22,503 nt of DNA from a virus (IMGVR_UViG_2698536485_000016:1-22503), one strand, 5' to 3'; counted from the stretch's first letter, positions 1 to 20,090 are shown. The notes: generated by a model from the letters alone, not told the origin. Program-made: numbers and translations.

Positions 1-528
1 GATGTGATGGCTGCTATGGGGATGGTGCAATCACAAGCCGGATTCGGAATGGCTGCATTCTGCGGTAAGTATGAACTCAGCCAGAACGACAAACAAAAGG
101 CTATCAACTATCTGATGCAATTTGCACACAAGGTATCGGGGAAATACCGTGGTGTGGCAAAGCTTGAAGGAAATACTAAGGCAAAGGTACTGCAAGTGCT
201 CGCAACATTCGCTTATGCGGATTATTGCCGTAGTGCCGCGACGCCGGGCGCAAGATGCAGAGATTGCCACGGTACAGGCCGTGCGGTTGATATAGCCAAA
301 ACAGAGCAGTGGGGGAGAGTTGTTGAGAAAGAGTGCGGAAGATGCAAAGGTGTCGGCTATTCAAGAATGCCAGCAAGCGCCGCATATCGCGCTGTAACGA
401 TGCTAATCCCAAACCTTACTCAACCCACCTGGTCACGCACTGTTAAGCCGCTGTATGACGCTCTGGTGGTGCAATGCCACAAAGAAGAGTCAATCGCAGA
501 CAACATTTTGAATGCGGTCACACGTTAG
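1..528 (+). CDS. Q: Late-gene antiterminator Q (lambda type), 5' end cut by the window edge
   Basis: Open in frame 1 from base 1 (ORF track 4..528). Translation carries a Cys-rich zinc-binding motif (CRDCHGTGR...CGRCKGVGY) and matches my recollection of lambda Q; lies directly upstream of a pR'-like promoter. Confidence 0.85.
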   Translation, partial: DVMAAMGMVQSQAGFGMAAFCGKYELSQNDKQKAINYLMQFAHKVSGKYRGVAKLEGNTKAKVLQVLATFAYADYCRSAATPGARCRDCHGTGRAVDIAKTEQWGRVVEKECGRCKGVGYSRMPASAAYRAVTMLIPNLTQPTWSRTVKPLYDALVVQCHKEESIADNILNAVTR

Positions 529-570
529 CAGCATGATTGCCACGGATGGCAACATATTAACGGCATGATA

Positions 571-620
571 TTGACTTTTTGAATAAAGTTGGGTAAATTT
601 GACCCAACGATGGGTTAATT
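571..620 (+). promoter_or_regulatory. pR'-like late promoter with Q-utilisation (qut) / pause region
   Basis: -35 TTGACT (571-576), 17-bp spacer, -10 TAAATT (594-599), start expected near 607; the sequence reads like the lambda pR' region as I recall it. Confidence 0.7.
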
Positions 621-740
621 CGCTCGTTGTGGTAGTGAGATGAAAAGAGGCGGCGCTTACTACCGATTCCGCCTAGTTGGTCACTTCGACGTATCGTCTG
701 GAACTCCAACCATCGCAGGCTGAGAGGTCTGCAAAATGCA

Positions 741-800
741 ATCCCGAAACAGTTCGCAGGTAATAGTTAGAGCCTGCATAACGGTTTCGGGATTTTTTAT
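741..800 (+). terminator. tR'-like intrinsic terminator (3' end of the short pR' leader transcript)
   Basis: Outer stem atcccgaaac (741-750) pairs with gtttcgggat (784-793), with an internal sub-hairpin, followed by a T-tract at 794-799; about 190 nt downstream of the predicted pR' start, as for the lambda 6S transcript. Confidence 0.7.
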
Positions 801-1196
801 ATCTGTGCAACAGGTAAGAGCATTCTCCTTTATGGGGCTTGGTTTAAATGCATTGAGTGCTCTTTCCGTTGTGCTGAATTAAGCGAATACCGGAAGCAGA
901 ACCGGATCACCAAATGCGTACAGGCGTCATCGCCGCCCAGCAACAGCACAACCCAAACTGAGCCGTAGCCACTGGCTATCCTGAATTCATCAGTGATAGT
1001 TACGCTGCGGCCTTCTACACATGATCTTCGTGAAAGCGGGTGACAGGAGGTCGCGCTAACAACCTCCTGCCGTTTTGCCCGTGCATATCGGTCACGAACA
1101 AATCTGATTACTAAACACAGTAGCCTGGATTTGTTCTATCAGTAATCGACCTTATTCCTAATTAAATAGAGCAAATCCCCTTATTGGGGGTAAGAC

Positions 1197-1520
1197 ATGA
1201 AGATGCCAGAAAAACATGACCTGTTAGCCGCCATTCTCGCGGCAAAGGAACAAGGCATCGGGGCAATCCTTGCGTTTGCAATGGCGTACCTTCGCGGCAG
1301 ATATAATGGCGGTGCGTTTACAAAAACAGTAATCGACGCAACGATGTGCGCCATTATCGCCTGGTTCATTCGTGACCTTCTCGACTTCGCCGGACTAAGT
1401 AGCAATCTCGCTTATATAACGAGCGTGTTCATCGGCTACATCGGTACTGACTCGATTGGTTCGCTTATCAAACGCTTCGCTGCTAAAAAAGCCGGAGTAG
1501 AAGATGGTGGAAATCAATAA
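1197..1520 (+). CDS. S: Class I holin, lambda S type, with dual-start motif (Met1-Lys2-Met3)
   Basis: 107-aa ORF with three hydrophobic segments and a charged C-terminus; MKMPEKHD N-terminus typical of the S107/S105 antiholin/holin pair; good SD upstream. Confidence 0.95.
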
Positions 1521-1980
1521 TCAACGTAAGGCGTTCCTCGATATGCTGGCGTGGTCAGAGGGAACTGATAACGGACGGCAGAAAACCAGAAATCATGGTT
1601 ATGACGTCATTGTTGGCGGAGAGCTATTCACTGATTACTCAGATCACCCTCGCAAACTTGTCACGCTAAACCAAAAACTCAAATCAACAGCCGCCGGACG
1701 TTACCAGCTTCTTTCCCGTTGGTGGGATGCCTACCGTAAGCAGCTTGGCCTGAAAGACTTCTCTCCGAAAAGCCAGGACGCTGTGGCATTGCAGCAGATT
1801 AAAGAGCGTGGCGCTTTACCGATGATTGATCGCGGTGATATTCGTCAGGCTATCGACCGTTGCAGCAATATCTGGGCTTCACTGCCTGGCGCTGGTTATG
1901 GTCAGTTCGAGCATAAGGCTGACAGCCTGATTGCAAAATTCAAAGAAGCTGGCGGAACGGTCAGAGAGATTGAGGTATGA
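1504..1980 (+). CDS. R: Endolysin, lambda R type (lytic transglycosylase)
   Basis: 158-aa ORF directly after the holin, overlapping its 3' end by 17 nt; translation matches my recollection of lambda R ([24 protein letters not shown]...). Confidence 0.95.
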
Positions 1981-2444
1981 GCAGAGTAACCGCGATTATC
2001 TCCGCTCTGGTTATCTGCATCATCGTTTGCCTGTCGTGGGCGGTCAATCATTACCGTGATAACGCCATGACCTACAAAGAACAGCGCGATAAAAAAGTCA
2101 GTGAGCTGATGCAGGCTACTACCACCATTACTGACATGCAGCAGCGCCAGCGTACTGCTGATGCACTTGATGCTAAATACACGAAGGAGTTAGCTGATGC
2201 GAAAGCTGAAAATGATGCTCTTCGGCGCAAGCTTGATAATGGTGGTCGGGTGCTCGTCAAAGGAAAATGCCCTGTGCCATCCTCAGCCGAAACCTCCAGC
2301 GCCTCCGGCATGGGCAATGATGCCACCGTCGAACTCTCTCCAGTTGCTGGACGAAACGTTCTCGGTGTCCGGGACGGAATTATCCGCGACCAAACAGTAC
2401 TGAGAACGCTTCAGGAATACATCAGGACGCAATGCCTTCGATGA
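1977..2444 (+). CDS. Rz: Rz inner-membrane spanin (i-spanin)
   Basis: Start overlaps the R stop (ATGA); N-terminal transmembrane segment followed by a coiled-coil-like periplasmic domain; position after the endolysin. Confidence 0.9.
2197..2403 (+). CDS. Rz1: Rz1 outer-membrane lipoprotein spanin (o-spanin), nested in the +1 frame of Rz
   Basis: 68-aa ORF wholly inside Rz; signal peptide with lipobox (LIMVVGC) followed by a proline-rich mature region ([11 protein letters not shown]); classical embedded Rz/Rz1 architecture. Confidence 0.75.
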
Positions 2445-2615
2445 TAGCGATAATTTTACTCATCATCCTTCACATCTGGCTCTGTAGACAGGGTGATGAT
2501 CACTTCTGGAGTGAATCCAGATTAAACATCTCATTGCTGATGCTTGATATTGAGCATCTGGCGCGCGGTAAGGGGCTGCGTTGAGATAAGAGCCAGTCAT
2601 TACAAATACCAGGAT

Positions 2616-2645
2616 TTAGCCTCGCATTCGCGGGGCTTTTTATAT
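2616..2645 (+). terminator. Candidate intrinsic terminator downstream of the lysis cassette
   Basis: GC-rich hairpin agcctcgc-attc-gcggggct (2618-2637) followed by TTTTTATAT. Confidence 0.5.
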
Positions 2646-2785
2646 CTGAATTTCACAGCGCATCTCACGCGCATATTAACGAGAGCCTTTCAGTAAGCGA
2701 GCCTGAGAAATTCCGTTATAGGTGGCGACCTCTCTCGGGCGGCTTTTCTGTGAGACAGGCTCACTTTCTAAAAGGTAAAGACGCT

Positions 2786-3304
2786 ATGAATCATCAATTG
2801 GCTAATCTCGATTTCCGGGACATGGTGGTTGTTTCTGGTGATCGCGTGATCACAACCTCCCGCAAGGTAGCAGCTTACTTCGACAAGCAGCATCACCACA
2901 TCATTCAGAAAATCGAAAAGCTAGACTGTTCGGATGAATTTCTAACCAGCAACTTTTCGCGGGTTACCTATGAACACAAGGGTAATCAGTATGTTGAATA
3001 TGAAATTTCCAAAGACGGCGCGATGTACATCATCATGTCGTTTACCGGCAAAAAAGCTGCCGCCATCAAAGAGGCGTTTATCAAAGCATTTAATTGGATG
3101 CGTGACAGGCTGATGGAGATGGCTCACTCATACCAAAGAGAGCACAACGAGTTAATGCTGGAGTTCATGAAGGAAAAGGATGTTGCCAGTATGTCAGGAC
3201 GCTTGCTGAACCGCTGGGGCAGGATCAAAAAACCGCAACTCATAGCAAGAATCGAAAGGCTTGAGCAGCAGGCGCAAATATCGATCCCCGGACTGCCAAA
3301 GTGA
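2786..3304 (+). CDS. Rha-family phage regulatory protein
   Basis: N-terminal segment VVVSGDRVITTSRKVAAYFDKQHHHIIQKIEKL and later MSFTGKKAAAIKEAFIKAFNWM fit the Rha domain pattern as I know it. ATG at 2786 preferred over the GTG at 2750 used by the ORF track. Confidence 0.75.
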   Translation: MNHQLANLDFRDMVVVSGDRVITTSRKVAAYFDKQHHHIIQKIEKLDCSDEFLTSNFSRVTYEHKGNQYVEYEISKDGAMYIIMSFTGKKAAAIKEAFIKAFNWMRDRLMEMAHSYQREHNELMLEFMKEKDVASMSGRLLNRWGRIKKPQLIARIERLEQQAQISIPGLPK

Positions 3305-3656
3305 CCATTCCAAAGCTCATCTACGGGTGGGCTTGATAATGAAACCGTGATTTACATCCCCACAATCCGGGTATGTAAAAGATAGTTCAGGCGAGAACAG
3401 ATTTAACTAAATCTGTGCACCACCAGTTGCGGCAGTACAGCGAAACAACCCAAGCCAGAAAGTGGGGAAATAACACTGGCAGCCACTGAAAGATGAACCT
3501 CCAGCCTTAAGGCAAAAAAGATTCTTTGTGGTGGCGGACTGATGGAAAGACATCGGTTATTGCAGAGGCCATTCAATGAGTGGTCTCGACAATGGCTTAT
3601 ACCCTACACGGGATAACTTAATTGATATCCCTTTTAACGGATAAACGGAGCCAACA

Positions 3657-3899
3657 ATGGCAGAGATTATTCCCATGACTGAAGAACAGAAATTCCAGTT
3701 AGAGATTTACAAACTGGTCATGAACCAGAACGCAGCCGCAGAAGAAGCATTTCAATTCATCGGCACTGACGAGTTGAAGCTTGAGCTATTCAAAATTCAC
3801 TTCCAGTCAGGTGGCGCTAATTCAGATATCACGACCAGAACTATCGAAGCGGTGCGTAAATCGAAGGAAGCGTTAGACCTGTTCACTACCGGAGCATAA
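3657..3899 (+). CDS. Hypothetical small acidic protein (80 aa)
   Basis: ORF with SD GGAG 9 nt upstream (acggagccaacaATG); no family recognised; sits just upstream of the small terminase gene. Confidence 0.5.
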   Translation: MAEIIPMTEEQKFQLEIYKLVMNQNAAAEEAFQFIGTDELKLELFKIHFQSGGANSDITTRTIEAVRKSKEALDLFTTGA

Positions 3900-3978
3900 A
3901 CATGGCAACTCAAGGTTTCGACAACCCATCCAAATTCCGCGATGAATGGGATAAGCAAGCAGAAGGGAAATAATCAAT

Positions 3979-4404
3979 ATGGCGACTGAGAAAAAGAATG
4001 TCGGTCGCCCTTCGGATTACCTACCGGAGGTGGCTGATGATATCTGTGCGCTGCTTTCCTCCGGGGAAAGTCTGGTTAAGGTTTGCAAGCGCCCCGGCAT
4101 GCCAGCAAAGGCTACTGTATTTCGCTGGCTGTCAGAGCATGAAGAATTTAGAGACAAGTACGCGAAGGCAACTGAGGCACGAGCTGATTCTATTTTCGAA
4201 GAGATATTCGAAATTGCTGACACTGCGATTCCAGATGCTGCTGAGGTGGCAAAGGCAAGACTTCGCGTTGATACCCGCAAATGGGCGCTGGCCCGAATGA
4301 ATCCCCGTAAGTATGGCGACAAGGTAACTAACGAGCTTGTCGGCAAAGACGGCGGCGCAATCCAGATTGAAACATCACCGATGAGCACTCTATTCGGAAA
4401 ATGA
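3979..4404 (+). CDS. Terminase small subunit (Sf6 gp1-like)
   Basis: 141-aa ORF immediately upstream of, and overlapping (ATGA), the large terminase; N-terminal DNA-binding-like region; matches my recollection of Sf6-type small terminase. Confidence 0.85.
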   Translation: MATEKKNVGRPSDYLPEVADDICALLSSGESLVKVCKRPGMPAKATVFRWLSEHEEFRDKYAKATEARADSIFEEIFEIADTAIPDAAEVAKARLRVDTRKWALARMNPRKYGDKVTNELVGKDGGAIQIETSPMSTLFGK

Positions 4405-5813
4405 CCTCGATTAATCCTATCTTTGAACCGTTCATTGAGGCGCATCGCTACAAAGTCGCCAAAGGCGGTCGAGGTAGCGGTAAGTCATGGGCAATTGCGA
4501 GACTGCTTGTTGAAGCGGCGCGTCGGCAGCCTGTGCGCATACTCTGCGCTCGTGAACTGCAAAACAGTATCAGCGATTCTGTAATCCGGTTGCTTGAAGA
4601 CACCATCGAGCGTGAAGGATATTCGGCTGAGTTTGAAATTCAGCGTTCAATGATTCGTCATCTCGGAACGAATGCTGAATTCATGTTCTACGGAATAAAA
4701 AACAACCCGACGAAGATTAAATCGCTCGAAGGTATTGATATCTGCTGGGTGGAAGAAGCGGAGGCGGTAACGAAGGAATCATGGGATATCCTGATACCAA
4801 CCATCCGTAAGCCGTTCTCTGAAATATGGGTGAGCTTTAACCCGAAGAACATCCTCGACGATACCTATCAGCGATTCGTCGTAAATCCTCCTGATGATAT
4901 TTGTCTGCTGACGGTGAACTACACCGACAACCCGCACTTTCCTGAAGTTCTCCGTCTGGAGATGGAAGAGTGTAAACGCAGAAACCCGACACTGTATCGT
5001 CACATCTGGCTTGGTGAGCCAGTAAGCGCAAGTGATATGGCAATCATCAAACGTGAATGGCTTGAAGCCGCAACCGATGCGCACAAGAAACTCGGATGGA
5101 AAGCGAAAGGCGCTGTTGTCTCTGCGCATGACCCGTCAGATACAGGGCCGGATGCTAAAGGTTATGCATCGCGTCACGGTTCGGTTGTTAAGCGCATTGC
5201 CGAAGGCCTGCTGATGGACATCAACGAGGGTGCTGACTGGGCTACTTCGCTGGCGATTGAAGACGGCGCTGACCATTACCTGTGGGACGGTGATGGCGTC
5301 GGTGCGGGCCTACGCAGACAGACAACGGAAGCGTTCTCCGGCAAGAAAATCACCGCCACGATGTTCAAGGGAAGTGAATCGCCATTCGATGAAGATGCGC
5401 CGTATCAGGCCGGAGCATGGGCTGATGAAGTCGTACAGGGTGACAACGTTCGCACTATTGGTGATGTGTTCCGCAATAAGCGAGCGCAATTCTATTACGC
5501 GCTGGCTGACAGGCTGTATCTGACATATCGGGCGGTTGTCCACGGTGAGTATGCAGACCCCGACGACATGCTGAGTTTCGACAAAGAAGCGATAGGCGAG
5601 AAGATGCTGGAGAAGCTGTTTGCAGAACTGACGCAGATTCAGCGCAAATTCAATAACAACGGGAAGCTGGAGCTAATGACTAAGGTCGAAATGAAGCAGA
5701 AGCTCGGTATTCCATCTCCTAACCTGGCTGATGCGCTGATGATGTGTATGCATTGCCCGGCATTGGTCCGCGAAGAAACAGAAATATACGTTCCCTCATC
5801 CTCCGGTTGGTAA
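4401..5813 (+). CDS. Terminase large subunit (ATPase/nuclease), PBSX / Sf6 gp2 type
   Basis: 470-aa ORF; Walker A GGRGSGKS near the N-terminus; acidic nuclease-domain residues C-terminally; canonical position. Confidence 0.95.
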   Translation: MTSINPIFEPFIEAHRYKVAKGGRGSGKSWAIARLLVEAARRQPVRILCARELQNSISDSVIRLLEDTIEREGYSAEFEIQRSMIRHLGTNAEFMFYGIKNNPTKIKSLEGIDICWVEEAEAVTKESWDILIPTIRKPFSEIWVSFNPKNILDDTYQRFVVNPPDDICLLTVNYTDNPHFPEVLRLEMEECKRRNPTLYRHIWLGEPVSASDMAIIKREWLEAATDAHKKLGWKAKGAVVSAHDPSDTGPDAKGYASRHGSVVKRIAEGLLMDINEGADWATSLAIEDGADHYLWDGDGVGAGLRRQTTEAFSGKKITATMFKGSESPFDEDAPYQAGAWADEVVQGDNVRTIGDVFRNKRAQFYYALADRLYLTYRAVVHGEYADPDDMLSFDKEAIGEKMLEKLFAELTQIQRKFNNNGKLELMTKVEMKQKLGIPSPNLADALMMCMHCPALVREETEIYVPSSSGW

Positions 5814-5815
5814 AC

Positions 5816-7942
5816 ATGGCAGAGACATTAGAGAAAAAACATGAGCGGATCATGCTCAGGTTTGACCGCGCCTATTCTCCACAGAAGGAAGTGCGCGAAA
5901 AGTGCATTGAAGCTACGAGGTTTGCTCGTGTCCCCGGAGGTCAATGGGAAGGAGCAACGGCGGCTGGAACTAAGCTTGATGAGCAGTTCGAGAAGTATCC
6001 TAAGTTTGAAATCAATAAGGTAGCAACTGAACTTAACCGCATCATTGCAGAATACCGCAATAACAGAATAACCGTTAAGTTTCGTCCTGGTGACAGAGAG
6101 GCAAGCGAAGAGTTAGCCAATAAATTAAATGGTCTGTTCCGTGCTGACTACGAAGAAACTGATGGCGGTGAGGCTTGCGATAATGCATTTGACGACGCTG
6201 CTACTGGTGGTTTCGGTTGCTTCCGTTTGACGTCGATGCTGGTCAATGAATACGACCCCATGGACGATCGTCAGCGTATTGCTATTGAACCAATATACGA
6301 CCCGTCGCGCTCTGTGTGGTTTGACCCTGACGCTAAGAAGTACGACAAATCTGACGCGTTGTGGGCGTTCTGTATGTATTCGTTGTCACCTGAAAAATAT
6401 GAGGCTGAATACGGAAAGAAACCTCCTACTTCTCTGGATGTAACGTCTATGACCAGTTGGGAATATAACTGGTTTGGTGCAGATGTTATTTACATAGCGA
6501 AGTATTACGAAGTTCGTAAAGAGTCTGTTGACGTCATCAGTTATCGACATCCAATCACTGGAGAGATTGCAACATACGACAGTGATCAGGTTGAAGATAT
6601 TGAAGATGAACTGGCAATAGCTGGATTTCAGGAAGTGGCAAGGCGCTCAGTGAAGCGCCGTCGTGTGTATGTATCCGTAGTGGATGGTGATGGTTTCCTT
6701 GAGAAACCTCGACGTATTCCTGGTGAGCATATCCCCCTCATCCCGGTTTATGGAAAACGCTGGTTCATTGATGACATTGAGCGTGTCGAAGGGCACATTG
6801 CAAAAGCAATGGATCCACAGCGTTTGTACAACCTTCAGGTTTCAATGCTGGCTGATACTGCAGCGCAAGACCCCGGTCAGATCCCTATAGTTGGCATGGA
6901 GCAAATTCGTGGACTTGAGAAGCACTGGGAGGCTCGCAACAAGAAACGCCCAGCGTTCTTGCCGTTGCGCGAAGTGAGAGATAAATCTGGCAACATTATC
7001 GCTGGAGCTACCCCGGCAGGATATACACAGCCTGCGGTTATGAATCAGGCATTGGCTGCATTACTACAGCAAACCAGTGCTGATATTCAGGAGGTTACAG
7101 GCGGCAGTCAGGCCATGCAGCAGATGCCAAGTAATATTGCTCAGGAAACGGTTAACAACTTGATGAACAGAGCAGATATGGCTTCGTTTATCTATCTGGA
7201 TAATATGGCGAAAAGTCTTAAACGCGCTGGTGAAGTATGGCTGTCAATGGCGCGTGAAGTGTACGGTTCAGAACGTGAAGTGCGCATCGTTAACGAAGAT
7301 GGAAGTGATGATATCGCTGTCCTGAGCGCACAGGTTGTTGACAGGCAAACAGGGGCTGTTGTTGCGTTAAATGACCTTTCTGTCGGTCGATACGATGTGA
7401 CGGTTGATGTTGGACCAAGCTACACAGCACGACGTGATGCAACGGTTTCTGTACTGACAAATGTCCTTAGCTCTATGCTTCCAACAGACCCAATGCGCCC
7501 GGCAATTCAGGGTATTATTCTGGACAATATCGATGGCGAAGGCCTTGATGACTTCAAAGAGTACAACCGAAACCAACTGCTGATATCTGGTATTGCAAAA
7601 CCACGCAATGAGAAAGAGCAGCAGATTGTTCAACAGGCGCAAATGGCAGCACAAAGCCAGCCAAATCCTGAAATGGTTCTCGCTCAGGCGCAAATGGTAG
7701 CAGCGCAGGCAGAAGCGCAAAAAGCAACTAACGAAACTGCTCAAACTCAAATCAAAGCATTTACTGCCCAGCAGGATGCGATGGAGAGTCAGGCAAACAC
7801 TGTCTATAAACTGGCTCAAGCCAGAAACATCGATGACAAAGCAGTGATGGAGGCAATACGCCTTCTGAAAGATGTCGCCGAGTCACAACAACAGCAATTC
7901 CAGTCACCACCACAGTCACCGGCAGACTTAATGCCGAGTTAA
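5816..7942 (+). CDS. Portal protein (P22 gp1 / Sf6 gp3-like)
   Basis: Large ORF directly after the terminase. I chose the ATG at 5816 (708 aa, start MAETLEKK, 2 nt after the terminase stop) rather than the extended 732-aa ORF-track start at 5744, which overlaps the terminase. Gln/Ala-rich C-terminal barrel-like tail. Confidence 0.88.
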   Translation: MAETLEKKHERIMLRFDRAYSPQKEVREKCIEATRFARVPGGQWEGATAAGTKLDEQFEKYPKFEINKVATELNRIIAEYRNNRITVKFRPGDREASEELANKLNGLFRADYEETDGGEACDNAFDDAATGGFGCFRLTSMLVNEYDPMDDRQRIAIEPIYDPSRSVWFDPDAKKYDKSDALWAFCMYSLSPEKYEAEYGKKPPTSLDVTSMTSWEYNWFGADVIYIAKYYEVRKESVDVISYRHPITGEIATYDSDQVEDIEDELAIAGFQEVARRSVKRRRVYVSVVDGDGFLEKPRRIPGEHIPLIPVYGKRWFIDDIERVEGHIAKAMDPQRLYNLQVSMLADTAAQDPGQIPIVGMEQIRGLEKHWEARNKKRPAFLPLREVRDKSGNIIAGATPAGYTQPAVMNQALAALLQQTSADIQEVTGGSQAMQQMPSNIAQETVNNLMNRADMASFIYLDNMAKSLKRAGEVWLSMAREVYGSEREVRIVNEDGSDDIAVLSAQVVDRQTGAVVALNDLSVGRYDVTVDVGPSYTARRDATVSVLTNVLSSMLPTDPMRPAIQGIILDNIDGEGLDDFKEYNRNQLLISGIAKPRNEKEQQIVQQAQMAAQSQPNPEMVLAQAQMVAAQAEAQKATNETAQTQIKAFTAQQDAMESQANTVYKLAQARNIDDKAVMEAIRLLKDVAESQQQQFQSPPQSPADLMPS

Positions 7943-7955
7943 CCAGGAGTAATCA

Positions 7956-8840
7956 ATGGAAAACGAACTGATCATCGACGGTCAGGTTATTGACCTGTCT
8001 GAAACACAGGAAAATGCAGAAGAAACCATCATCCAAACAGAGTCACAGCCTGAGAATGAAAGCCAGGATGACAACGGTAAAGAGGTGGCAACTGAGCCTG
8101 AAAAAACCGAAGAGACACCAGAAGATTACGCCTTGCGTATTGGTGATGAAGAAATTCAGCTTAACGCTGACGATGATGATCACATTGACGGGCAACCTGC
8201 ACCGCAATGGGTGAAAGATCTTCGCAAAGGCTTCAAAGAAACACAGAAAGAAAACCGTGAGTTGCGCCGCCAGCTTGAGGAAGCATTAGCCAAGCCAGCG
8301 GAACATCAGCAACCACAACCAGACGCTATTCCACCAAAACCGACTCTTGAGTCGTGTGATTATGACGAACAGGCGTTTGAACAGGCATTGACTGATTGGC
8401 ATGAGAAAAAAGGCCGTGTCGAACAGCAGCAGCAACAAAAACTACGTCAGCAACAGGAATACCAACAGCGTTTCCAGCAAAGGGTAGAAGCGCATAAACA
8501 ACGGGCAGCCAAACTTCCTGTGAAAGATTATCAGGAAATGGAGGCCATTGTTCTTAGTGAGCTACCACCAATTCAGCAGGAAATCATCATTCACTGTGCA
8601 GACGAAGGCTCTGAACTACTCGCCTATGGCTTAGGTAAGAGCCAGCAATTACGCCAGCGTGTAGCCGCTGAGACAGATCCAATTCGCGCAGCATTCCTCT
8701 TGGGGCAGATTAGCAAACAGGTAAGCCTTGCTCCAAAACCAAAGAAAGCCATCAAGCCAGAGCCGGAAGTACGTGGTGGCGGTGCTGATGCGAAACAAGA
8801 CGAATTCAACAAATTATGCCCCGGCGCAAAAATCGAATAA
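7956..8840 (+). CDS. Scaffolding protein
   Basis: 294-aa highly charged, Glu/Gln-rich, helical-looking protein between portal and coat; SD aggag upstream. Confidence 0.75.
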   Translation: MENELIIDGQVIDLSETQENAEETIIQTESQPENESQDDNGKEVATEPEKTEETPEDYALRIGDEEIQLNADDDDHIDGQPAPQWVKDLRKGFKETQKENRELRRQLEEALAKPAEHQQPQPDAIPPKPTLESCDYDEQAFEQALTDWHEKKGRVEQQQQQKLRQQQEYQQRFQQRVEAHKQRAAKLPVKDYQEMEAIVLSELPPIQQEIIIHCADEGSELLAYGLGKSQQLRQRVAAETDPIRAAFLLGQISKQVSLAPKPKKAIKPEPEVRGGGADAKQDEFNKLCPGAKIE

Positions 8841-8851
8841 GGAAAAGATAA

Positions 8852-10123
8852 ATGCCTAACAATCTCGACAGTAACGTCAGTCAAATCGTTCTGAAAAAAT
8901 TCCTTCCGGGTTTTATGTCAGATTTAGTTCTGGCGAAAACCGTAGACCGTCAGTTGCTGGCAGGTGAAATCAACTCCAGCACTGGCGATAGCGTTAGCTT
9001 TAAACGTCCGCATCAATTCTCATCCCTCCGTACTCCCACTGGTGATATTTCAGGGCAAAATAAAAACAACCTGATCTCAGGTAAAGCTACGGGGCGTGTA
9101 GGTAACTACATCACTGTTGCTGTTGAATATCAGCAACTGGAGGAAGCGATCAAGCTTAACCAACTGGAAGAAATTCTCGCGCCGGTTCGCCAGCGAATCG
9201 TTACCGACCTTGAAACAGAGCTTGCTCACTTCATGATGAATAACGGTGCGTTGTCACTTGGTAGCCCCAATACTCCAATCACCAAATGGTCTGATGTTGC
9301 GCAGACGGCATCTTTCCTGAAAGACCTCGGCGTTAATGAAGGTGAAAACTATGCTGTAATGGATCCATGGTCTGCACAGCGACTTGCTGATGCGCAGACT
9401 GGTTTGCATGCTTCAGATCAATTGGTTCGTACTGCATGGGAGAACGCACAGATCCCAACCAATTTTGGCGGCATTCGCGCACTGATGTCTAATGGGCTTG
9501 CCTCTCGTACGCAGGGGGCATTTGGCGGAACACTGACAGTCAAAACACAGCCAACTGTTACCTATAACGCAGTTAAAGACTCATACCAGTTCACTGTAAC
9601 ATTGACCGGAGCGACAACCAGCGTTACAGGTTTCCTGAAAGCTGGTGATCAGGTTAAATTCACCAATACCTACTGGCTGCAACAGCAGACCAAACAGGCG
9701 TTGTATAACGGAGCCACACCAATTAGCTTCACTGCAACGGTTACTGCTGATGCTAATTCAGACAGCAGTGGCGATGTGACGGTTACGCTTTCTGGTGTTC
9801 CGATTTATGACACTACAAACCCGCAGTACAACTCTGTAAGTCGTCAGGTAGCGGCAGGTGATGCCGTATCTGTAGTAGGCACTGCTAGCCAGACAATGAA
9901 GCCAAACCTGTTCTATAACAAGTTCTTCTGTGGACTTGGCTCTATCCCACTGCCGAAACTGCACAGTATTGATTCTGCTGTTGCAACATATGAAGGTTTC
10001 TCCATCCGCGTACATAAATACGCAGATGGCGATGCCAACGTGCAAAAAATGCGCTTTGACTTACTGCCTGCATATGTGTGCTTTAACCCTCACATGGGCG
10101 GTCAGTTCTTCGGTAATCCGTAA
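8852..10123 (+). CDS. Major capsid (coat) protein, Sf6 gp5-like
   Basis: 423-aa ORF after the scaffold gene, good SD (aaggaaaagataaATG), followed by a strong intrinsic terminator as is typical for coat genes. Confidence 0.85.
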   Translation: MPNNLDSNVSQIVLKKFLPGFMSDLVLAKTVDRQLLAGEINSSTGDSVSFKRPHQFSSLRTPTGDISGQNKNNLISGKATGRVGNYITVAVEYQQLEEAIKLNQLEEILAPVRQRIVTDLETELAHFMMNNGALSLGSPNTPITKWSDVAQTASFLKDLGVNEGENYAVMDPWSAQRLADAQTGLHASDQLVRTAWENAQIPTNFGGIRALMSNGLASRTQGAFGGTLTVKTQPTVTYNAVKDSYQFTVTLTGATTSVTGFLKAGDQVKFTNTYWLQQQTKQALYNGATPISFTATVTADANSDSSGDVTVTLSGVPIYDTTNPQYNSVSRQVAAGDAVSVVGTASQTMKPNLFYNKFFCGLGSIPLPKLHSIDSAVATYEGFSIRVHKYADGDANVQKMRFDLLPAYVCFNPHMGGQFFGNP

Positions 10124-10127
10124 TAAC

Positions 10128-10155
10128 AAGGGGCTTACGCCCCTTTTATGTTTTA
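10128..10155 (+). terminator. Intrinsic terminator or attenuator after the coat gene
   Basis: Hairpin aaggggc-ttac-gcccctt (10128-10145) followed by TTATGTTTT. Confidence 0.6.
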
Positions 10156-10165
10156 AGGAAACAAT

Positions 10166-10351
10166 ATGGATCGCATGAGTGTATTCCTTGCCGCAGATAA
10201 CGAATCCGGGCATGTACAGGCCGTTATCGCAGAAAAAGACTTCCAGTTTTTCGAAAAGTTGGGCTTTGTTGCCTCAGTTGATGAATTGAAACCGACCAGT
10301 AAGCGAGGTCGTAAGGCGGCAGACAATGGCAACAGTACTGACAAAGGGTGA
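10166..10351 (+). CDS. Hypothetical small protein (61 aa)
   Basis: ORF with SD (aaggaaacaatATG) just after the coat terminator; its 3' end overlaps the start of the gp4-like gene by 26 nt; no recognised family. Confidence 0.4.
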   Translation: MDRMSVFLAADNESGHVQAVIAEKDFQFFEKLGFVASVDELKPTSKRGRKAADNGNSTDKG

Positions 10352-10808
10352 GATCGTCCTTTTTGCGCTTCGTAAGTTTGCTATTGCTTCTAATGCATCG
10401 CTGACTGATGTTGAGCCGCAATCAATTGAAGATGGTGTAAATGATCTGGAAGATATGATGTCCGAGTGGATGATTAACCCCGGCGAGATTGGTTACGCTT
10501 TCGCAACTGGAGATGAGCAGCCATTACCAGATGATGAGTCAGGTCTTCCAAGAAAATACAAACACGCAGTAGGCTATCAGTTATTGCTGAGAATGCTATC
10601 TGATTACAGCCTTGAGCCAACTCCGCAAGTTCTCAGTAACGCCCAACGCTCATATGATGCCTTGATGACCGACACTCTGGTTGTTCCTTCAATGCGACGA
10701 CGTGGAGATTTTCCTGTAGGGCAGGGTAATAAATATGACGTGTTCACATCTGACCGATATTATCCAGGCGATCTTCCTCTGATTGATGGCGATATCCCAA
10801 ACGCATAG
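10326..10808 (+). CDS. Head-to-tail adaptor / tail accessory factor (P22 gp4-like)
   Basis: 160 aa; N-terminal region (TKGEIVLFALRKFAIASNASLTDVEPQS) resembles P22 gp4 as I recall it; conserved position after coat. Confidence 0.8.
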   Translation: MATVLTKGEIVLFALRKFAIASNASLTDVEPQSIEDGVNDLEDMMSEWMINPGEIGYAFATGDEQPLPDDESGLPRKYKHAVGYQLLLRMLSDYSLEPTPQVLSNAQRSYDALMTDTLVVPSMRRRGDFPVGQGNKYDVFTSDRYYPGDLPLIDGDIPNA

Positions 10809-10816
10809 GTGAATAA

Positions 10817-12235
10817 ATGCCTATTCAGCAACTTCCGCTTATGAAAGGTGTCGGCAAAGACTTTAGAAACGCCGACTATATCGACTATCTGCCAGTGAAT
10901 ATGTTGGCTACACCCAAAGAAATCCTGAACAGCAGCGGATATCTTCGCTCATTCCCGGGCATTGCCAAACGTTCTGATGTGAACGGCGTATCGCGCGGAG
11001 TTGAGTACAACATGGCGCAGAGTGCTGTTTATCGCGTGTGTGGCGGCAAGCTGTACAAAGGAGAAAGTGAAGTCGGTGATGTTGCCGGAAGTGGTCGTGT
11101 ATCAATGGCGCATGGTCGGACATCTCAGGCTGTAGGCGTTAATGGCCAACTGGTCGAGTATCGTTATGATGGCACGGTTAAAACAGTCTCAAACTGGCCT
11201 ACAGACAGCGGATTCACGCAGTATGAGTTAGGTTCTGTTCGTGACATTACGCGCTTACGCGGGCGTTATGCGTGGTCAAAAGACGGCACTGATTCATGGT
11301 TTATCACTGACCTTGAAGACGAATCGCATCCTGACCGCTACAGCGCACAATATCGCGCAGAATCGCAGCCGGACGGTATCCTCGGCATCGGCACATGGCG
11401 AGACTTCATCGTCTGCTTTGGTTCATCGACGATTGAATATTTCTCCCTGACTGGTGCAACCACCGTTGGTGCAGCTTTGTATGTCGCACAGCCATCACTG
11501 ATGGTGCAAAAAGGCATCGCCGGGACTTACTGCAAAACGCCATTCGCTGATTCTTATGCGTTCATCAGCAATCCGGCAACTGGTGCGCCGTCTGTGTATA
11601 TCATCGGCTCCGGGCAGGTATCACCAATCGCCAGCGCGAGCATTGAGAAAATCCTCCGCTCCTACACTGCTGATGAACTGGCTGATGGCGTGATGGAATC
11701 GTTGCGGTTTGATGCTCATGAGTTGCTGATTATCCATCTTCCGCGCCATGTCCTCGTATACGACGCATCTTCAAGCGCCAATGGTCCGCAATGGTGTGTA
11801 CTGAAAACAGGTCTGTATGACGATGTGTACCGCGCTATCGACTTCATTTACGAAGGCAATCAGATAACGTGCGGCGATAAGCTGGAATCCGTGACCGGGA
11901 AATTGCAGTTCGACATCAGCAGCCAGTACGACAAGCAACAGGAACACCTGCTGTTTACTCCGTTGTTCAAAGCGGATAACGCCAGATGCTTCGATCTGGA
12001 GGTGGAATCATCCACTGGCGTAGCTCAGTACGCCGACCGCCTGTTCCTCTCTGCAACCACTGACGGCATAAATTACGGACGTGAGCAGATGATTGAACAG
12101 AATGAACCGTTCGTTTACGACAAACGCGTTTTGTGGAAGCGAGTAGGGCGCATCAGGAAAAATGTCGGCTTCAAATTGCGCGTTATCACGAAGTCACCTG
12201 TCACTCTGTCTGGCTGCCAGATAAGGATTGAGTAA
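10817..12235 (+). CDS. Tail hub / tail accessory factor (P22 gp10-like)
   Basis: 472-aa ORF, the same length as P22 gp10 by my recollection, in the conserved position between the gp4-like and needle genes. Confidence 0.8.
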
Positions 12236-12936
12236 TGGCGGATTCGAATCTCAATGTGCCGGTAATCATCCAAGCTACGCGGCCCGATACATCAGTCCTT
12301 CCACGCAATATCTTCTCGCAGTCGTATCTGCTTTACGTTATCGCACAGGGCACTGATGTTGGTAACGTGGCTAACAAGGCCAACGAGGCCGGACAGGGCG
12401 CTTATGATGCACAGGTCAGGAACGATGAGCAGGATGTTATTCTGGTCGATCACGAAGAAAGAATTCGTCAGCTCCGCATCGACGTAGACGACCATGAAAT
12501 CCGTATTACTGCAAATACCAATGCAATCGCGTCGCTGGATGTCAGACTAACCACGGCTGAAGGTGAAATAGTCACCTTGCAGGCTGATGTCAGTGCTCTT
12601 GATGGTAGAGTGACGGAGGCTGAAGGAAATATTTCTGCATTGCAGGACGATTACGTATCGAAAACAGCAACAGCAACACAATCGCTGGCATCCCCCCTCA
12701 ACGTAACAACATCCTATTCAGTCGGCGGCACCAAGGTTATCGGTGCTCGCCAGACAGGATGGACAGCGGCAACCGGAACGGCACTCCTCGGCGCATTCAA
12801 CGCTAACCAGTCATACACTGTCGGCACTACGTACACGCAATCCGAAGTCTCAGCACTCGCTACAGGTTTGCAGCAGGCGCGGCAGCGTATTCTGGCGCTT
12901 GAAACGGCACTTAGATTACATGGGCTGATTGACTGA
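12235..12936 (+). CDS. Tail needle / plug protein (P22 gp26-like)
   Basis: 233 aa; conserved N-terminus ([37 protein letters not shown]) and heptad-repeat coiled-coil core; start overlaps the upstream stop (TAATG). Confidence 0.9.
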
Positions 12937-13391
12937 TGATTACATTCAAACCAACGCGAAACATCGACCTGATCGAAGCAGTAGGAAATCACCCTGACAT
13001 CATCGCCGGGAGCAACAACGGTGATGGATACGACTACAAACCTGATTGCAGTTACTTTGAGGTGAACGTGCACGGTCAGTTTGGCGGCATTGTTTACTAT
13101 CAGGAGATTCAGCCGCTGACCTTCGATTGCCACGCCATGTACCTGCCAGAGATTCGCGGCTTCAGCAAGGAAATCGGGCTGGCGTTCTGGCGATACATTC
13201 TGACTAACACCACCGTTCAGTGCGTCACATCGTTCGCTGCACGCAAATTCCGCCACGGTCAGATGTATTGCGCAATGATTGGCCTTAAGCGTGTAGGAAC
13301 CATCAAGAAATACTTCAAAGGCGTGGATGACGTGACGTTTTACAGCGCCACACGCGAAGAACTAATCGACTTCCTGAATCACGGGAGATAG
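12936..13391 (+). CDS. gp14-like virion assembly / infectivity protein
   Basis: 151-aa ORF in the position of P22 gene 14 between the needle and ejection-protein genes; start overlaps the upstream stop (TGATG). Confidence 0.6.
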   Translation: MITFKPTRNIDLIEAVGNHPDIIAGSNNGDGYDYKPDCSYFEVNVHGQFGGIVYYQEIQPLTFDCHAMYLPEIRGFSKEIGLAFWRYILTNTTVQCVTSFAARKFRHGQMYCAMIGLKRVGTIKKYFKGVDDVTFYSATREELIDFLNHGR

Positions 13392-13393
13392 CC

Positions 13394-14086
13394 ATGTTAT
13401 ATGCATTTAAGCTGGGCAGAAAACTGCGCGGCGAGGAACCTTATTGCCCTGAAAAAGGCGGGAAAGGTGGTAGCTCTGATAAAAGCGCAAAGTATGCAGC
13501 AGAAGCCCAGAAGTATGCCGCAGACCTGCAAAATCAGCAGTGGCAGACGATCATGAAAAACCTTGCTCCGTTCACGCCGCTTGCGGAGCAGTATGTTAAA
13601 CAGCTTCAGAATCTTTCCAGTTTAGAAGGTCAGGGGCAGGCACTTAATCAGTATTACAATTCTCAGCAGTATAAAGACCTTGCAGGTCAGGCTCGTTACC
13701 AGAGTCTTGCTGCTGCGGAGGCGACTGGCGGACTTGGTTCGACAGCTACAAGCAATCAACTTGCTACGATTGCTCCGACTCTCGGTCAGTCGTGGTTATC
13801 AAACCAGATGAGCAATTACAACAATCTGGCAAACGTTGGGCTTGGTGCGCTGCAAGGTCAGGCAAACGCTGGGCAGACATACGCCAACAACATGAGCAGC
13901 ATTGCACAGCAAAGTGCAGCACTTGCCGCTGCTAATGCCAATAAACCATCAAGTCTTCAGACTGCAATTAGCGGTGGCACGTCTGGTGCGATTGCCGGTG
14001 CAGGTCTTGCCAGTCTTTTGGGAACATCAACGCCTTGGGGCGCTGGCATTGGTGCTGGTATCGGATTGCTTGGCTCGTTGTTTTAA
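13394..14086 (+). CDS. Ejection (DNA-transfer) protein, P22 gp7-like
   Basis: 230 aa; Gly/Ala/Gln-rich C-terminal half ending in a hydrophobic segment; first of the three ejection-protein genes. Confidence 0.75.
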   Translation: MLYAFKLGRKLRGEEPYCPEKGGKGGSSDKSAKYAAEAQKYAADLQNQQWQTIMKNLAPFTPLAEQYVKQLQNLSSLEGQGQALNQYYNSQQYKDLAGQARYQSLAAAEATGGLGSTATSNQLATIAPTLGQSWLSNQMSNYNNLANVGLGALQGQANAGQTYANNMSSIAQQSAALAAANANKPSSLQTAISGGTSGAIAGAGLASLLGTSTPWGAGIGAGIGLLGSLF

Positions 14087-14095
14087 GGGGTAATC

Positions 14096-15391
14096 ATGGC
14101 TACTTGGCAAGGAACAAACGGCGGATTGTTGGCTGGTATCGGCGGCGTCAACTCAAACGCTCCGAGCGTAAATGACATCGGCAATACGCTTCAGCTTATC
14201 AGGCAGAACAATGATATTGAGCGTTCAGGCGCTAACAATGTTGGGCTGACTGCTTTGCAAGGCCTTTCAGGTATTGCAGGGGTGTTTCAGCAGGAAAAGC
14301 AGGCTCAGCGGCAGAAAGAATTTCAGCAGGCGTACGCTAATGCTTATGCGTCTGGTGATCGCGGTGCTTTGCGTCAGTTGGCTACTCAATATCCAGACCA
14401 GATTGAATCCGTTCGTAAAGGCATGGGATTCATTGATGAAGACCAGCGTAATTCTATCGGCACCTTAGCGGCTGGTGCACGCCTTGCGTCATCGTCTCCA
14501 GAAGCAATGCAATCATGGCTGCAAAACAACGCCAAGGAACTGACTCGCGTCGGTGTTGACCCTAACAGCGTTGCTCAGATGTATCAGCAGAACCCTTCAG
14601 GATTTGGTGAGTTTGTTGATCACCTTGGAATGACCGCGCTTGGTCCGATTGATTACTTCAATGTTCAGGACAAGATGGCTGGTCGTGAGATTGACCGAGG
14701 CAGGCTGGCAGAGACAATCCGCAGCAATCAGGCCGGAGAAGCACTAACAGCTCGAGGTCAGGACATCCAGATACGTGGACAGAACATCAGCGCACAGAAT
14801 GCTGCTCTTTCCCGCGAAATACAAAGAGCAGAATTACAAGAAAAGGCTCTGGACAGACAGATAGCCAGAGAAAGCAATCAGTTAAAGCTTGAAGAGCTAA
14901 AACAGAAACAGGCAGATGTTAGGCAAAAGGCTGACATAGCCCGCGCTGACAGGCAGGCCGCCGCTCAGGGTGCAGTTGATACGTTCAGCACCGCGCTTGA
15001 TTCTCTCAACGAGATAGAGCAAAGCCCCGGCCTTTCAAAAGCAGTAGGAATTCGCTCAGCGTTTCCGACAGTTCCTGGCTCTGATGCGGCTAACTTTGAA
15101 GCAAGGCTCGACACCTTTAAAGCTCAAACATTCCTTCCTATGGTGCAGTCCCTTAAGGGGATGGGTGCTCTTTCAGATGCTGAGGGTAAAAAATTATCCG
15201 ATGCGGTTGGTGCCCTAAGCCCCAAAATGAGTGAAAAGGCTTTTCGTGACTCTATCGGAAAGATTAGAAATCAGCTTGAAAGCAAGTTGAGCACTGTTAA
15301 AAAACAGTTTGATTATCAGGAGCCGGTTCAGAATATGCCAGGGCAACAATCTACTACTGGCAGTAACTTTTCTTCACTATGGGGTGATTAA
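14096..15391 (+). CDS. Ejection (DNA-transfer) protein, P22 gp20-like
   Basis: 431-aa ORF, second of three consecutive internal virion protein genes; Gln-rich with coiled-coil-like stretch. Confidence 0.7.
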   Translation: MATWQGTNGGLLAGIGGVNSNAPSVNDIGNTLQLIRQNNDIERSGANNVGLTALQGLSGIAGVFQQEKQAQRQKEFQQAYANAYASGDRGALRQLATQYPDQIESVRKGMGFIDEDQRNSIGTLAAGARLASSSPEAMQSWLQNNAKELTRVGVDPNSVAQMYQQNPSGFGEFVDHLGMTALGPIDYFNVQDKMAGREIDRGRLAETIRSNQAGEALTARGQDIQIRGQNISAQNAALSREIQRAELQEKALDRQIARESNQLKLEELKQKQADVRQKADIARADRQAAAQGAVDTFSTALDSLNEIEQSPGLSKAVGIRSAFPTVPGSDAANFEARLDTFKAQTFLPMVQSLKGMGALSDAEGKKLSDAVGALSPKMSEKAFRDSIGKIRNQLESKLSTVKKQFDYQEPVQNMPGQQSTTGSNFSSLWGD

Positions 15392-17388
15392 TGGCTAAAG
15401 CATGGAAAGATGTTATCGCCTCTCCACAGTATCAGGCGTTAGCACCAGAACAAAAAGCGCAGGCTCAGGAGCAATACTTCAATGAAGTCGTGGCCCCGCA
15501 AGCCGGAGAAAATGCAGAGCAGGCTAAGCAAGCTTTCTATGCTGCCTATCCATTGCCATCTGTGCAGCAAGTGGAGACACAGCAACCAGTTGCACAGCAA
15601 CAACCACAGCAAAGTGGATTTATGTCTGATCTTGGCGAAGCAGTAAAAGAGACTGGTCGCGGACTGGTGCAGGCTGGCGTGAACGTGGCAAACATACCTG
15701 CATCAGTTGCCGATGCTGTAACAAGCGCGGCGGCTTGGGCTGGCGGTAAACTCGGCATTGGCGATGGTACATATCAACCAGCGCCACGAGTAACAACGCA
15801 GGGATTAGAGCAGGACTTTGGCCTTCGGCAAGGTGCGCTGACTCCACAAACGACAGAGGGAAGGGTATTTGCTGAAGCATTGCCTTACCTCACACCTGCT
15901 GGCGTTGAGAGAGCGGCGGTACAGGCACCAACACTTGCTGGTCGAATTGCTCAGGGGGCAACTCGCCTTCTAGCAGAAAACGCAGTTGGATCACTTGCTG
16001 CAAATAGTGCGAAAGATGATGCGGAAGCACTCGCCACCGATTTAGGCGTTGGTGTACTTGCTGGCGGTGCTATTAACGCTGCTGGACGTGGATTAGGTGC
16101 TGCTTATCGTGGCGTTCGTGGTGCTATCACGCCAGAAGCGCAGCAGGCTATCAGATTTGCAGAGCGTGAAGGAGTTCCTCTGCACACCACAGACCTGTTA
16201 CAACCCACTTCCCGCGTCGGAAAAATGGCGCAGACTACAGCAGAAAATATCCCTCTGGCTGGCACAAGCGGAATGAGAGCAACGCAACAGGAAGCGAGAA
16301 GCCAGTTGGTGCAGAGATTTGCTGATAAATTTGGTGAGTATGATCCAGCGGTTGTTATTGACAGCCTTAAAGCGAAAACATCAGGAATTCGTCGTGCTGC
16401 CGGTAATCGACTGGAGCAGGTTCAGAATGCTATGGCTGGAGTAAACATTCAACCTGCGCGAGCAATTCAGCAGATTGATACAGAAATATCTAACCTGCAG
16501 AAGCTTGGTAAGGTTGCTGATAACGAGACTATTTCAAAACTTCAGTCATATCGTGATGAGCTTGTTCGCAATGCTGGTCCTGATGGTCCGGTCAATCTGG
16601 ATTTGAAGCAATTAAGCGATCTGCGCAGCCAGTTCAGAATGGACGTGAAGGGTGAGCGACCAGTGTTACCAAACCGTTCCGATGCTGCCATTCAGCGAGT
16701 TTACAAGGCGATGACCGACGATATCAATGGTGCCATTGGTCAGAATCTTGGCAATGATACTCTTCGTAAATATCAGCAGGCCAATGCCGTCTACGCTGAC
16801 GAAGCGGCGAAACTAAAGAATACCAGGCTGAAGAATGTTCTCATGAAAGGCGACCTGACGCCGGAAGTTGTCAACAACATGCTATTCAGCAAGAACAAAT
16901 CGGAAATTAAGACTCTGTATAACTCAGTTGGTCGTGTTGGCAGGGCGCAAATGCGCAATGGCATCATTGGAAAGGCGATGGAGAAATCAGGTGGTTCCCC
17001 TGACCAGTTCCTTCGGCAACTTAACATCCTGCAAAACCAGACTGGCATCACATTTAAAGGTCAGGAAGCCGCTTATCTGAAAGGATTGAAAAACTACCTG
17101 CAATCCACGCAACAGGCTGCAAAAGCAGCAGTAACAACACCAACAGGGCAGCAAACCATCCCGTTCATTATCGGATATGGGACGGCAATGAACCCGGCGA
17201 CAACTGGCGCAGCGGTAAGCTACGGACTTCTTACTCGCGCCTATGAGAGCGAGCCATTCAGAAATGCAATGCTCCGAATGGCAAACACCCCACGCGGATC
17301 AACAGCGTTTGAGAAAGCCATGCAGCAGGCGCAAAAGGCCATTAACGCCATTACTCAGGGGGCTAAGTCTGATGCGTTGTCAGAATAG
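15391..17388 (+). CDS. Ejection (DNA-transfer) protein, P22 gp16-like
   Basis: 665-aa ORF, third ejection-protein gene, start overlapping the upstream stop (TAATG); Gln-rich N-terminal region. Confidence 0.7.
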   Translation: MAKAWKDVIASPQYQALAPEQKAQAQEQYFNEVVAPQAGENAEQAKQAFYAAYPLPSVQQVETQQPVAQQQPQQSGFMSDLGEAVKETGRGLVQAGVNVANIPASVADAVTSAAAWAGGKLGIGDGTYQPAPRVTTQGLEQDFGLRQGALTPQTTEGRVFAEALPYLTPAGVERAAVQAPTLAGRIAQGATRLLAENAVGSLAANSAKDDAEALATDLGVGVLAGGAINAAGRGLGAAYRGVRGAITPEAQQAIRFAEREGVPLHTTDLLQPTSRVGKMAQTTAENIPLAGTSGMRATQQEARSQLVQRFADKFGEYDPAVVIDSLKAKTSGIRRAAGNRLEQVQNAMAGVNIQPARAIQQIDTEISNLQKLGKVADNETISKLQSYRDELVRNAGPDGPVNLDLKQLSDLRSQFRMDVKGERPVLPNRSDAAIQRVYKAMTDDINGAIGQNLGNDTLRKYQQANAVYADEAAKLKNTRLKNVLMKGDLTPEVVNNMLFSKNKSEIKTLYNSVGRVGRAQMRNGIIGKAMEKSGGSPDQFLRQLNILQNQTGITFKGQEAAYLKGLKNYLQSTQQAAKAAVTTPTGQQTIPFIIGYGTAMNPATTGAAVSYGLLTRAYESEPFRNAMLRMANTPRGSTAFEKAMQQAQKAINAITQGAKSDALSE

Positions 17389-17477
17389 CTTCGCAAACAC
17401 CAGGAACGTGCAAAAACCAAATATGTAGAACGCAATATTCAGCATATCTCTGTGCATAAATCCTCCGTAACGGATGG

Positions 17478-17738: not shown

Positions 17739-17869
17739 CCTTGATGCCTCACCAGTTGGGTGGAATGGCATCGTAACCTACTGGATAAATACTCAATAAT
17801 ACCATTTTGGTATGCAATCACATCATGGTTGCATCATATCATTCGTCTGGAGCAATGAAATGTCAGATA

Positions 17870-18370: not shown

Positions 18371-18392
18371 TATTTTCTCCGGAATGTTTATT

Positions 18393-20060: not shown

Positions 20061-20090
20061 AAATAGGGCGGTCTCCCCGCCCTATTTTTA
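20061..20090. terminator. Bidirectional intrinsic terminator between the convergent tailspike and acyltransferase genes
   Basis: Perfect 9-bp stem atagggcgg / ccgccctat with a 5-nt loop, flanked by AAAA on the left and TTTTT on the right. Confidence 0.7.

Follow-up and report, generated by a model that had tools for sequence, protein, structure and literature searches.

How does a phage come to combine a lambda-like late-control and lysis region with the packaging genes of another phage type, and how would such a phage package its DNA? The question is raised by IMGVR_UViG_2698536485_000016:1-22503, a viral DNA of 22,503 nucleotides (nt; hereafter the window), whose positions 1-5813 run from within the late antiterminator gene Q to the end of the large terminase gene terL. 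An earlier note on this DNA had proposed that lambda-type late control and lysis genes are here fused to a P22/Sf6-type virion module, and that the phage packages by the headful rule from a pac site instead of a lambda cos site. We conclude with high confidence that 1-5813 is the late-control, lysis and DNA-packaging part of a P22-like temperate phage or prophage (Lederbergvirus, Sf6/HK620 subgroup) from E. coli or Shigella, with lambda-Q late control and Sf6-type headful packaging. Over its full length the window corresponds to the part of a P22-like phage (Sf6/HK620 group) that runs from Q to int, and its top phage matches are vB_EcoP-683R2, Sf6, HF4s, HK620, IME10 and Kapi1. The arrangement itself, a lambda-like left part followed by an Sf6-like packaging part, is long known and widespread, and has already been described for HK620, Sf6, P22 and epsilon34.

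Lambda-type late control

Pairwise alignment with lambda and Sf6 bears out both halves of the proposed fusion and places its breakpoints. In a blastn comparison of window 1-6500 with lambda 43000-48502, lambda (NC_001416) 43982-46213 is colinear with window 1-2224 at 95.2% identity (100 mismatches and 2 small indels). Matches to lambda and to Sf6 have E = 0 in all searches, which excludes a chance match. The left part had been described as near-identical to lambda over 1-2100, and low identity there would have spoken against the fusion; the value is about 96%, so that the description stands in substance, although identity does not approach 100%. Lambda is not the nearest relative of this part. 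Kapi1 is closer (99.3% over 1-800), and several HK/mEp phages, among them HK446 and mEp506, are 97-98% identical to it. The late-control features are:

1-528, plus strand: 3' 528 nt of Q, a lambda-type late antiterminator (Pfam Antiterm PF03589, E 1.9e-51)
571-611, plus strand: late promoter pR' (TTGACT-17-TAAATT, 571-599), with presumed start at 606 and pause element AACGAT at 606-611 (qut region), from a promoter scan and alignment with lambda and Kapi1
606-799, plus strand: 194-nt leader, the equivalent of the 6S RNA, ending in the terminator tR' (1 mismatch in 194 nt to lambda)
800-862, plus strand: replaced patch just 3' of tR' (the 801-900 bin is 74% identical to lambda with two indels; the patch is about 40 bp at about 824-862)

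The N-terminal 32 codons of Q lie outside the window edge. Over the part present, 14 of 528 nt differ from lambda (97.3% identity), and the protein shares 98.3% amino acid identity with lambda Q over 175 residues (residues 33-207), within the range of at least 92% that marks a lambda-type Q (PMC2629481). Positions 529-570 are identical to lambda. In pR' the hexamers and their spacing are the same as in lambda and AACGAT at 606-611 is unchanged; the three substitutions in 571-605 (578, 588 and 604) touch neither the hexamers nor AACGAT. Homology with lambda, which we take to hold here, puts the start of transcription at 606 and identifies AACGAT (+1 to +6) as the -10-like pause element. tR' has its stem at 743-791 and a run of six U at 793-798 (-26.4 kcal/mol, z = -6.2), and it lies about 190 nt downstream of the start, as required of a lambda-type Q module.

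The stretch just after tR' (800-955) is a variable slot among these phages. Kapi1 and Sf6 carry genes for tRNA-Asn and tRNA-Thr there, whereas the window keeps the lambda arrangement except for the patch of about 40 bp at 824-862, and a tRNA search of the window found none. Lambda identity is 97.9% over 863-1196, up to the holin gene.

A lysis cassette with a chimeric spanin gene

1197-1520, plus strand: holin S with dual start Met-Lys-Met (S107/S105) (PF05106, E 2.4e-30)
1504-1980, plus strand: endolysin R, lambda-type transglycosylase (98.1% amino acid and 96.0% nt identity to lambda)
1977-2444, plus strand: inner-membrane spanin Rz (PF03245), chimeric, with codons 1 to about 83 lambda-like and the remainder of HK620/Kapi1 type
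2197-2403, plus strand: outer-membrane lipoprotein spanin Rz1, nested in Rz in another frame, a non-lambda allele (PF06085, E 3.8e-21)

A class I dual-start holin, lambda R and an Rz-nested Rz1 lipoprotein gene make this a lambda-type cassette, in which Rz is of the lambda allele in its first half only. S is 99.1% identical to lambda at both the nucleotide and the amino acid level, and shares 100% amino acid identity with the S proteins of Sf6 and Kapi1. In Rz, the portion upstream of Rz1 (1977-2196) has 85.5% nt identity to lambda, with the mismatches clustered in 2069-2174; positions 2175-2221 are again nearly identical, and the homology is gone at 2222-2225. This break at codon 83 of 155, 26-29 nt into Rz1, agrees with the earlier reading of the 5' half of Rz as lambda-like. 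Over its full length Rz is 60% identical to the lambda protein, 90% to that of HK620 and 95% to that of Kapi1. Rz1 is 53% identical to lambda Rz1 over 45 residues, and its lipobox VVGC is readable in the translation. The C-terminal half of Rz and Rz1 interact in spanin function. Given that the break falls at the start of Rz1, the C-terminal half of Rz and Rz1 have been exchanged together. The GenBank record of Sf6 marks a boundary sequence, bsq7, inside Rz.

A chain of junctions

The claim of a mosaic joint holds in that lambda-type late control and lysis genes are fused to an Sf6-type virion module; however, the joint is not one junction, and is instead a chain of several. Blocks homologous to Sf6 lie at 956-2606 (88.4% identity) and at 3306-3554 and 3556-3897 (about 93%), and homology resumes at 3979, with matches at 3979-12443 (97.6%) and 12936-17458 (96.8%). 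The parts unlike Sf6 are 1-955, the slot of a Rha-family gene at 2606-3306, the segment 3897-3979 and a patch inside the small terminase gene terS. The junctions are thus found at 2222-2225 in Rz, at about 2606, at about 3306, at 3897, at 3979 and at 4152, and the end of the lambda homology is followed by about 1.75 kb of swappable accessory modules. A model with a single breakpoint was considered and rejected, since homology to Sf6 is present from 956 on (88%), with three gaps ahead of 3979.

A joint of this kind might also arise in assembly or in the laboratory, for example from contaminating lambda vector. Two points speak for this: lambda DNA often contaminates laboratory work, and the left edge of the window cuts abruptly into Q. 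However, identity to lambda is 95% and not close to 100%, and there are closer natural matches, both in Kapi1 (over 1-800, as above) and in HK620 (95-96%). The same joint is found in HK620, Kapi1, phiv205-1 and 127 complete E. coli genomes. In these 127 genomes, out of 5,426, a single place covers at least 80% of 1-5813 (at best 93% coverage at 97.8% identity), and one IMG/VR locus, L009, follows the window colinearly from about 1700 on, terS included, and each tested segment is 95-100% identical. Because identity to lambda is 95% and the independent occurrences are many, contamination and chimeric assembly are ruled out, and we regard the chance of an artefact as negligible. Related prophage DNA is present in thousands of E. 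coli chromosomes.

The terminase genes and the alleles of TerS

3979-4404, plus strand: small terminase TerS, Sf6 type (PDB 4DYC/3HEF, E 3e-83; Sf6_terminase PF20901, E 1.7e-44)
4401-5813, plus strand: large terminase TerL, Sf6 type, with ATPase and nuclease (PDB 4IDH, 1087 bits; PF04466)

The extents first given for terS (3979-4404) and terL (4401-5813) are correct. TerL is identical to Sf6 gp2 in 470 of 470 residues. TerS has the helix-turn-helix DNA-binding domain, oligomerization core and C-terminal barrel of the Sf6 gp1 family and is 91.5% identical to gp1, with all 12 differences within residues 1-83. The structures of Sf6 gp1 and gp2 have been solved (PDB 4DYC/3HEF and 4IDH). The TerS matches at E <= 0.001 do not include P22 gp3 (PDB 3P9A), and no P22 terminase name occurs among the TerL matches. 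The virion module, called P22/Sf6-type in the earlier note, is thus of Sf6 type, with the match extending to 17458, and is not of P22 type in the strict sense.

The terS patch is the sharpest new detail of our analysis. The part coding for the DNA-binding domain (3990-4152) has 73% nt identity to Sf6 and holds 44 of the 49 nt differences in terS, while 4153-4404 and terL are 97-98% identical. To place this patch among its relatives, we compared 83 TerS sequences, from 80 IMG/VR loci (our sample of related loci throughout) and from Sf6, HK620 and Kapi1. Four N-terminal alleles occur. The commonest is that of the window, and a different one is common to Sf6, HK620 and Kapi1. Over the C-terminal 58 residues the only variation is three rare single substitutions. 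An exchange point therefore lies inside terS, between the DNA-binding and oligomerization domains. Diversity at third codon positions (pi3), scanned over terS and terL in a set of 34 distinct sequences, is higher in the part for the DNA-binding domain (0.25-0.33 versus 0.03-0.17 downstream). A pac footprint in the form of lowered pi3 was sought in the same scan; the opposite is seen, and no site can be placed this way.

Packaging mode and the position of pac

The resemblance to lambda on the left side, together with the cos site that lambda has about 2 kb downstream of Rz, might suggest that the phage packages from a lambda-style cos despite its Sf6-like head genes. However, lambda homology ends at 2224, and lambda cosN has only 2 two-mismatch matches in the window (2720 and 14955), a chance level that is reached by 27 of 100 shuffles. 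Nu1/A-type terminase genes were not found either, the terminase being Sf6 gp1/gp2. Without a cosN beyond chance and without Nu1/A, the lambda cos site is not present, just as the earlier note had supposed. Gene content effectively refutes cos packaging, and we give it next to no credence. The 22-bp pac sequence of P22 has no match with up to 3 mismatches, and the Kapi1 preprint contains no data on DNA ends.

We infer that the window phage packages by the headful rule, by analogy with Sf6, which serves as the experimental model of how this terminase packages by headfuls (PMC5630979 and bioRxiv 10.1101/851345). In PMC5630979, Sf6 is described as a headful packager, with reference to Casjens 2004 and Leavitt 2013, and its virion DNA is reported to be circularly permuted and terminally redundant. 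bioRxiv 10.1101/851345 cites Leavitt 2013 among papers that place pac inside the TerS gene. By the same analogy, the pac site of the window phage would most likely lie within the DNA-binding-domain part of terS (about 3990-4152). In the Leavitt work, Sf6 packaging series reportedly start at points spread over about 2 kb, around a pac within the terS segment for the DNA-binding domain, and the self-contained arrangement of terS and pac is said to favor horizontal exchange of terS segments. The pattern of TerS alleles described above fits this picture.

A pac site outside terS, either in neighboring DNA such as the near-invariant segment 3900-3978 or in terL, is an alternative for the position of the site. 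This 79-bp segment is 100% identical in 61 of the 80 related loci and at least 90% identical in 72, which makes it more conserved than either flanking gene, and it is kept even where terS is only 86-87% identical. Furthermore, terS has no footprint of synonymous-site conservation, and PMC9611059 describes DNA binding by Sf6 TerS in vitro as weak and largely sequence-independent. However, Sf6 and HK620 have unrelated sequence at 3900-3978 (hkbN/gene 68) and yet share TerL and the C-terminal domain of TerS; therefore, the segment is not a required partner of the terminase. Published in vivo work puts pac within terS, as cited in bioRxiv 10.1101/851345, and TerS varies in amino acid sequence only within its DNA-binding domain, as expected if domain and site travel together. 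We consider a pac outside terS quite improbable and favor a site within the gene.

The region could also derive from a decayed, non-inducible prophage whose functions no longer operate, given that most of its close matches are prophages in bacterial genomes and that only 22.5 kb are visible. However, none of the genes within 1-5813 is broken or shortened in comparison with functional phages, TerL has the same sequence as Sf6 gp2, and the regulatory elements have been kept. We hold inactivity by decay to be very improbable.

Several points nevertheless weigh against an Sf6-like headful phage under lambda-Q control. For the window phage, the headful mode is predicted by homology with Sf6. The exact sequence and specificity of pac are not transferable from Sf6, because 3990-4152 has only 73% DNA identity to Sf6 and residues 1-83 of TerS differ at 12 positions. 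Third-codon-position diversity along terS shows no added conservation that would mark an embedded site. In late control, two of the substitutions relative to lambda (578 and 588) fall in the spacer of pR', which contains the Q-binding element; both are common to Kapi1, and for that reason they are probably tolerated. Finally, the window alone fits an active phage or a prophage alike.

Accessory slots and a conserved gene-free stretch

Between the lysis genes and terS lie the following features:

2432-2584, plus strand: 50-amino-acid open reading frame (ORF) at the position of Sf6 gene 65 (37668-37820) and of Kapi1_042 (DNA homology of 956-2606 to Sf6 36222-37843 and to Kapi1)
2618-2647, plus strand: terminator-like hairpin after the lysis cassette (scan: 8-bp stem with 6 G-C pairs, then TTTTATATCT; consensus match only)
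2750-3304, plus strand: Rha-family accessory gene (Phage_pRha and ORF11CD3, both domains in Pfam, E 1e-23)
3305-3656, plus strand: gene-free conserved stretch of 352 nt with an RNA hairpin at 3556-3596 and a terminator-like hairpin at 3610-3635 (plus-strand fold z = -4.1)
3657-3899, plus strand: DUF2560 gene, homolog of HK620 hkbM, Sf6 gene 67 and P22 orf80 (PF10834, E 1e-43)
3902-3973, plus strand: 23-codon ORF (MATQGFDNPSKFRDEWDKQAEGK) in place of hkbN / Sf6 gene 68 (ORF list)

The 50-amino-acid ORF has no Pfam match. The hairpin at 2618-2647, between the lysis cassette and the Rha gene, is presumably read through by Q-modified polymerase. The Rha gene is found in 15 of the 80 related loci and occupies a variable slot, filled by other genes in Sf6, HK620 and Kapi1; in P22, rha is at the same place. 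The place of the 23-codon ORF is held in HK620, Sf6, Kapi1 and P22 by a gene of about 60 codons (hkbN / gene 68 / orf59c). Origin of the 23-codon ORF as a deletion derivative of hkbN was considered and ruled out, the two sequences being unrelated on alignment.

DNA homologous to 3305-3656 is present in 205 phage records, including P22, HK022 and Stx2 phages, of which the Stx2 phages share the 3556-3645 core only. The stretch is common to pac-type (P22, Sf6 and HK620) and cos-type (HK022, a siphovirus) lambdoid phages, and the P22 copy lies between rha and orf80. Among the 17 pairs of the hairpin at 3556-3596, five have compensatory two-sided changes across 15 distinct variants, where the independent changes are few because the variants fall into few mosaic alleles. 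Overall, 96.7% of cells are paired, versus 39-54% when the partners are slid. G-U pairs on the plus strand indicate an RNA of the same sense as the late transcript. The hairpin at 3610-3631 is followed by TTTT, is terminator-like and is invariant among the variants except in P22. Rfam gave no match, either over the whole window at the gathering threshold or over 500-4100 at E <= 1.

Relation to known phages

The best overall match to 1-5813 is Kapi1 (MT813197), which covers 83% of it at 96.6% identity with the same layout, and whose TerL is 100% identical over 453 amino acids. Kapi1 differs from the window in the accessory gene that fills the Rha slot, in having hkbN, and in its TerS allele, which is that of Sf6 and HK620. 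HK620 (AF335538) resembles the window in its lambda-like Q (labeled "similar to lambda Q" in the record), annotated pR'/qut, late terminator, S, R, Rz, hkbM and Sf6-type terminases. The shared blocks are 95-96% identical in DNA, Rz is of the same non-lambda C-terminal type (90% in amino acid sequence), and TerL is 99.4% identical. However, the spacer between Q and S is 1,022 nt in HK620 versus 669 in the window and is unmatched over window 629-1073, and HK620 has KilA-N genes (hkbK/hkbL) for Rha, hkbN for the 23-codon ORF and the DNA-binding-domain allele of Sf6 TerS.

Sf6 (AF547987) shares the terminase and virion module (97% in DNA), R (97.5% in amino acid sequence) and the DUF2560 gene. In contrast, its counterpart of window 1-955, a phage-21-type Q/pR'/tR' and two tRNAs, has no similarity to the window, and it differs also in the Rz/Rz1 allele, in gene 66 for Rha, in gene 68 and in the DNA-binding-domain allele of TerS. 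Lambda has nothing in common with the window past Rz codon 83, where it carries its own bor, cos, Nu1/A and long-tailed virion module.

P22 has the same order as the window, namely lysis genes, rha, the conserved non-coding stretch, orf80, a small ORF and terS (gene 3). The late antiterminators of the short-tailed phages P22 and epsilon34 have 96% and 99% amino acid identity with lambda Q, and the epsilon34 qut is identical to that of lambda (PMC2629481). However, the terminase and coat genes of both are of P22 type, unlike the window, and their coat proteins are 14-28% identical to the Sf6/HK620 type (PMC2629481).

Further along the window, an ORF at 12235-12936 (233 amino acids) holds the position of Sf6 gene 9 (282 amino acids; similar to P22 gene 26). 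Its C-terminal part, 12443-12936, has no DNA match to gene 9 and marks another intragenic mosaic joint. From the last injection gene to int (17458-21155) the DNA is non-Sf6, and includes a minus-strand ORF for an HNH endonuclease (17870-18412), a tailspike gene (18384-20060) in which the head-binding domain alone resembles Sf6 (86% over 18441-18731), and, at the position of the Sf6 O-antigen acetylase, an acyltransferase-family gene on the minus strand (20088-21155).

Proposed pathway and implications

Based on these comparisons, we propose that a Q of lambda specificity would load onto RNA polymerase paused just after pR' (571-599, start at about 606), and that the Q-loaded polymerase would pass tR' (743-798) and the terminator-like hairpins beyond it without stopping. 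A single late transcript would then carry, in order, S, R, the chimeric Rz/Rz1, the accessory genes (the gene-65-like ORF, Rha, DUF2560 and the 23-codon ORF) and the terminase and virion genes of Sf6 type. TerS would recognize pac, probably in the DNA-binding-domain part of its own gene, and TerL would cut nearby. Heads filled by the headful rule would contain circularly permuted, terminally redundant DNA without cohesive ends.

A further suggestion, which we make tentatively and think unlikely to hold as a whole, is that the DNA-binding-domain allele of TerS may set a pac specificity unlike that of Sf6 and that the hairpins at 3556-3596 and 3610-3635 may form an element, so far undescribed, by which the late transcript is regulated or processed. 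If the TerS allele does have its own pac specificity, domain and site would be exchanged as one self-contained cassette.

As textbook lambdoid mosaicism, the arrangement is of little import in itself. Its value lies in annotation: for phages of this layout, late transcription dependent on a lambda-type Q, headful packaging capable of generalized transduction, and no cos site are to be expected. In addition, the intragenic joints in Rz and terS illustrate that units of exchange follow interaction partners and not gene borders, the partners being the C-terminus of Rz with Rz1 and the DNA-binding domain of TerS with its presumed site.

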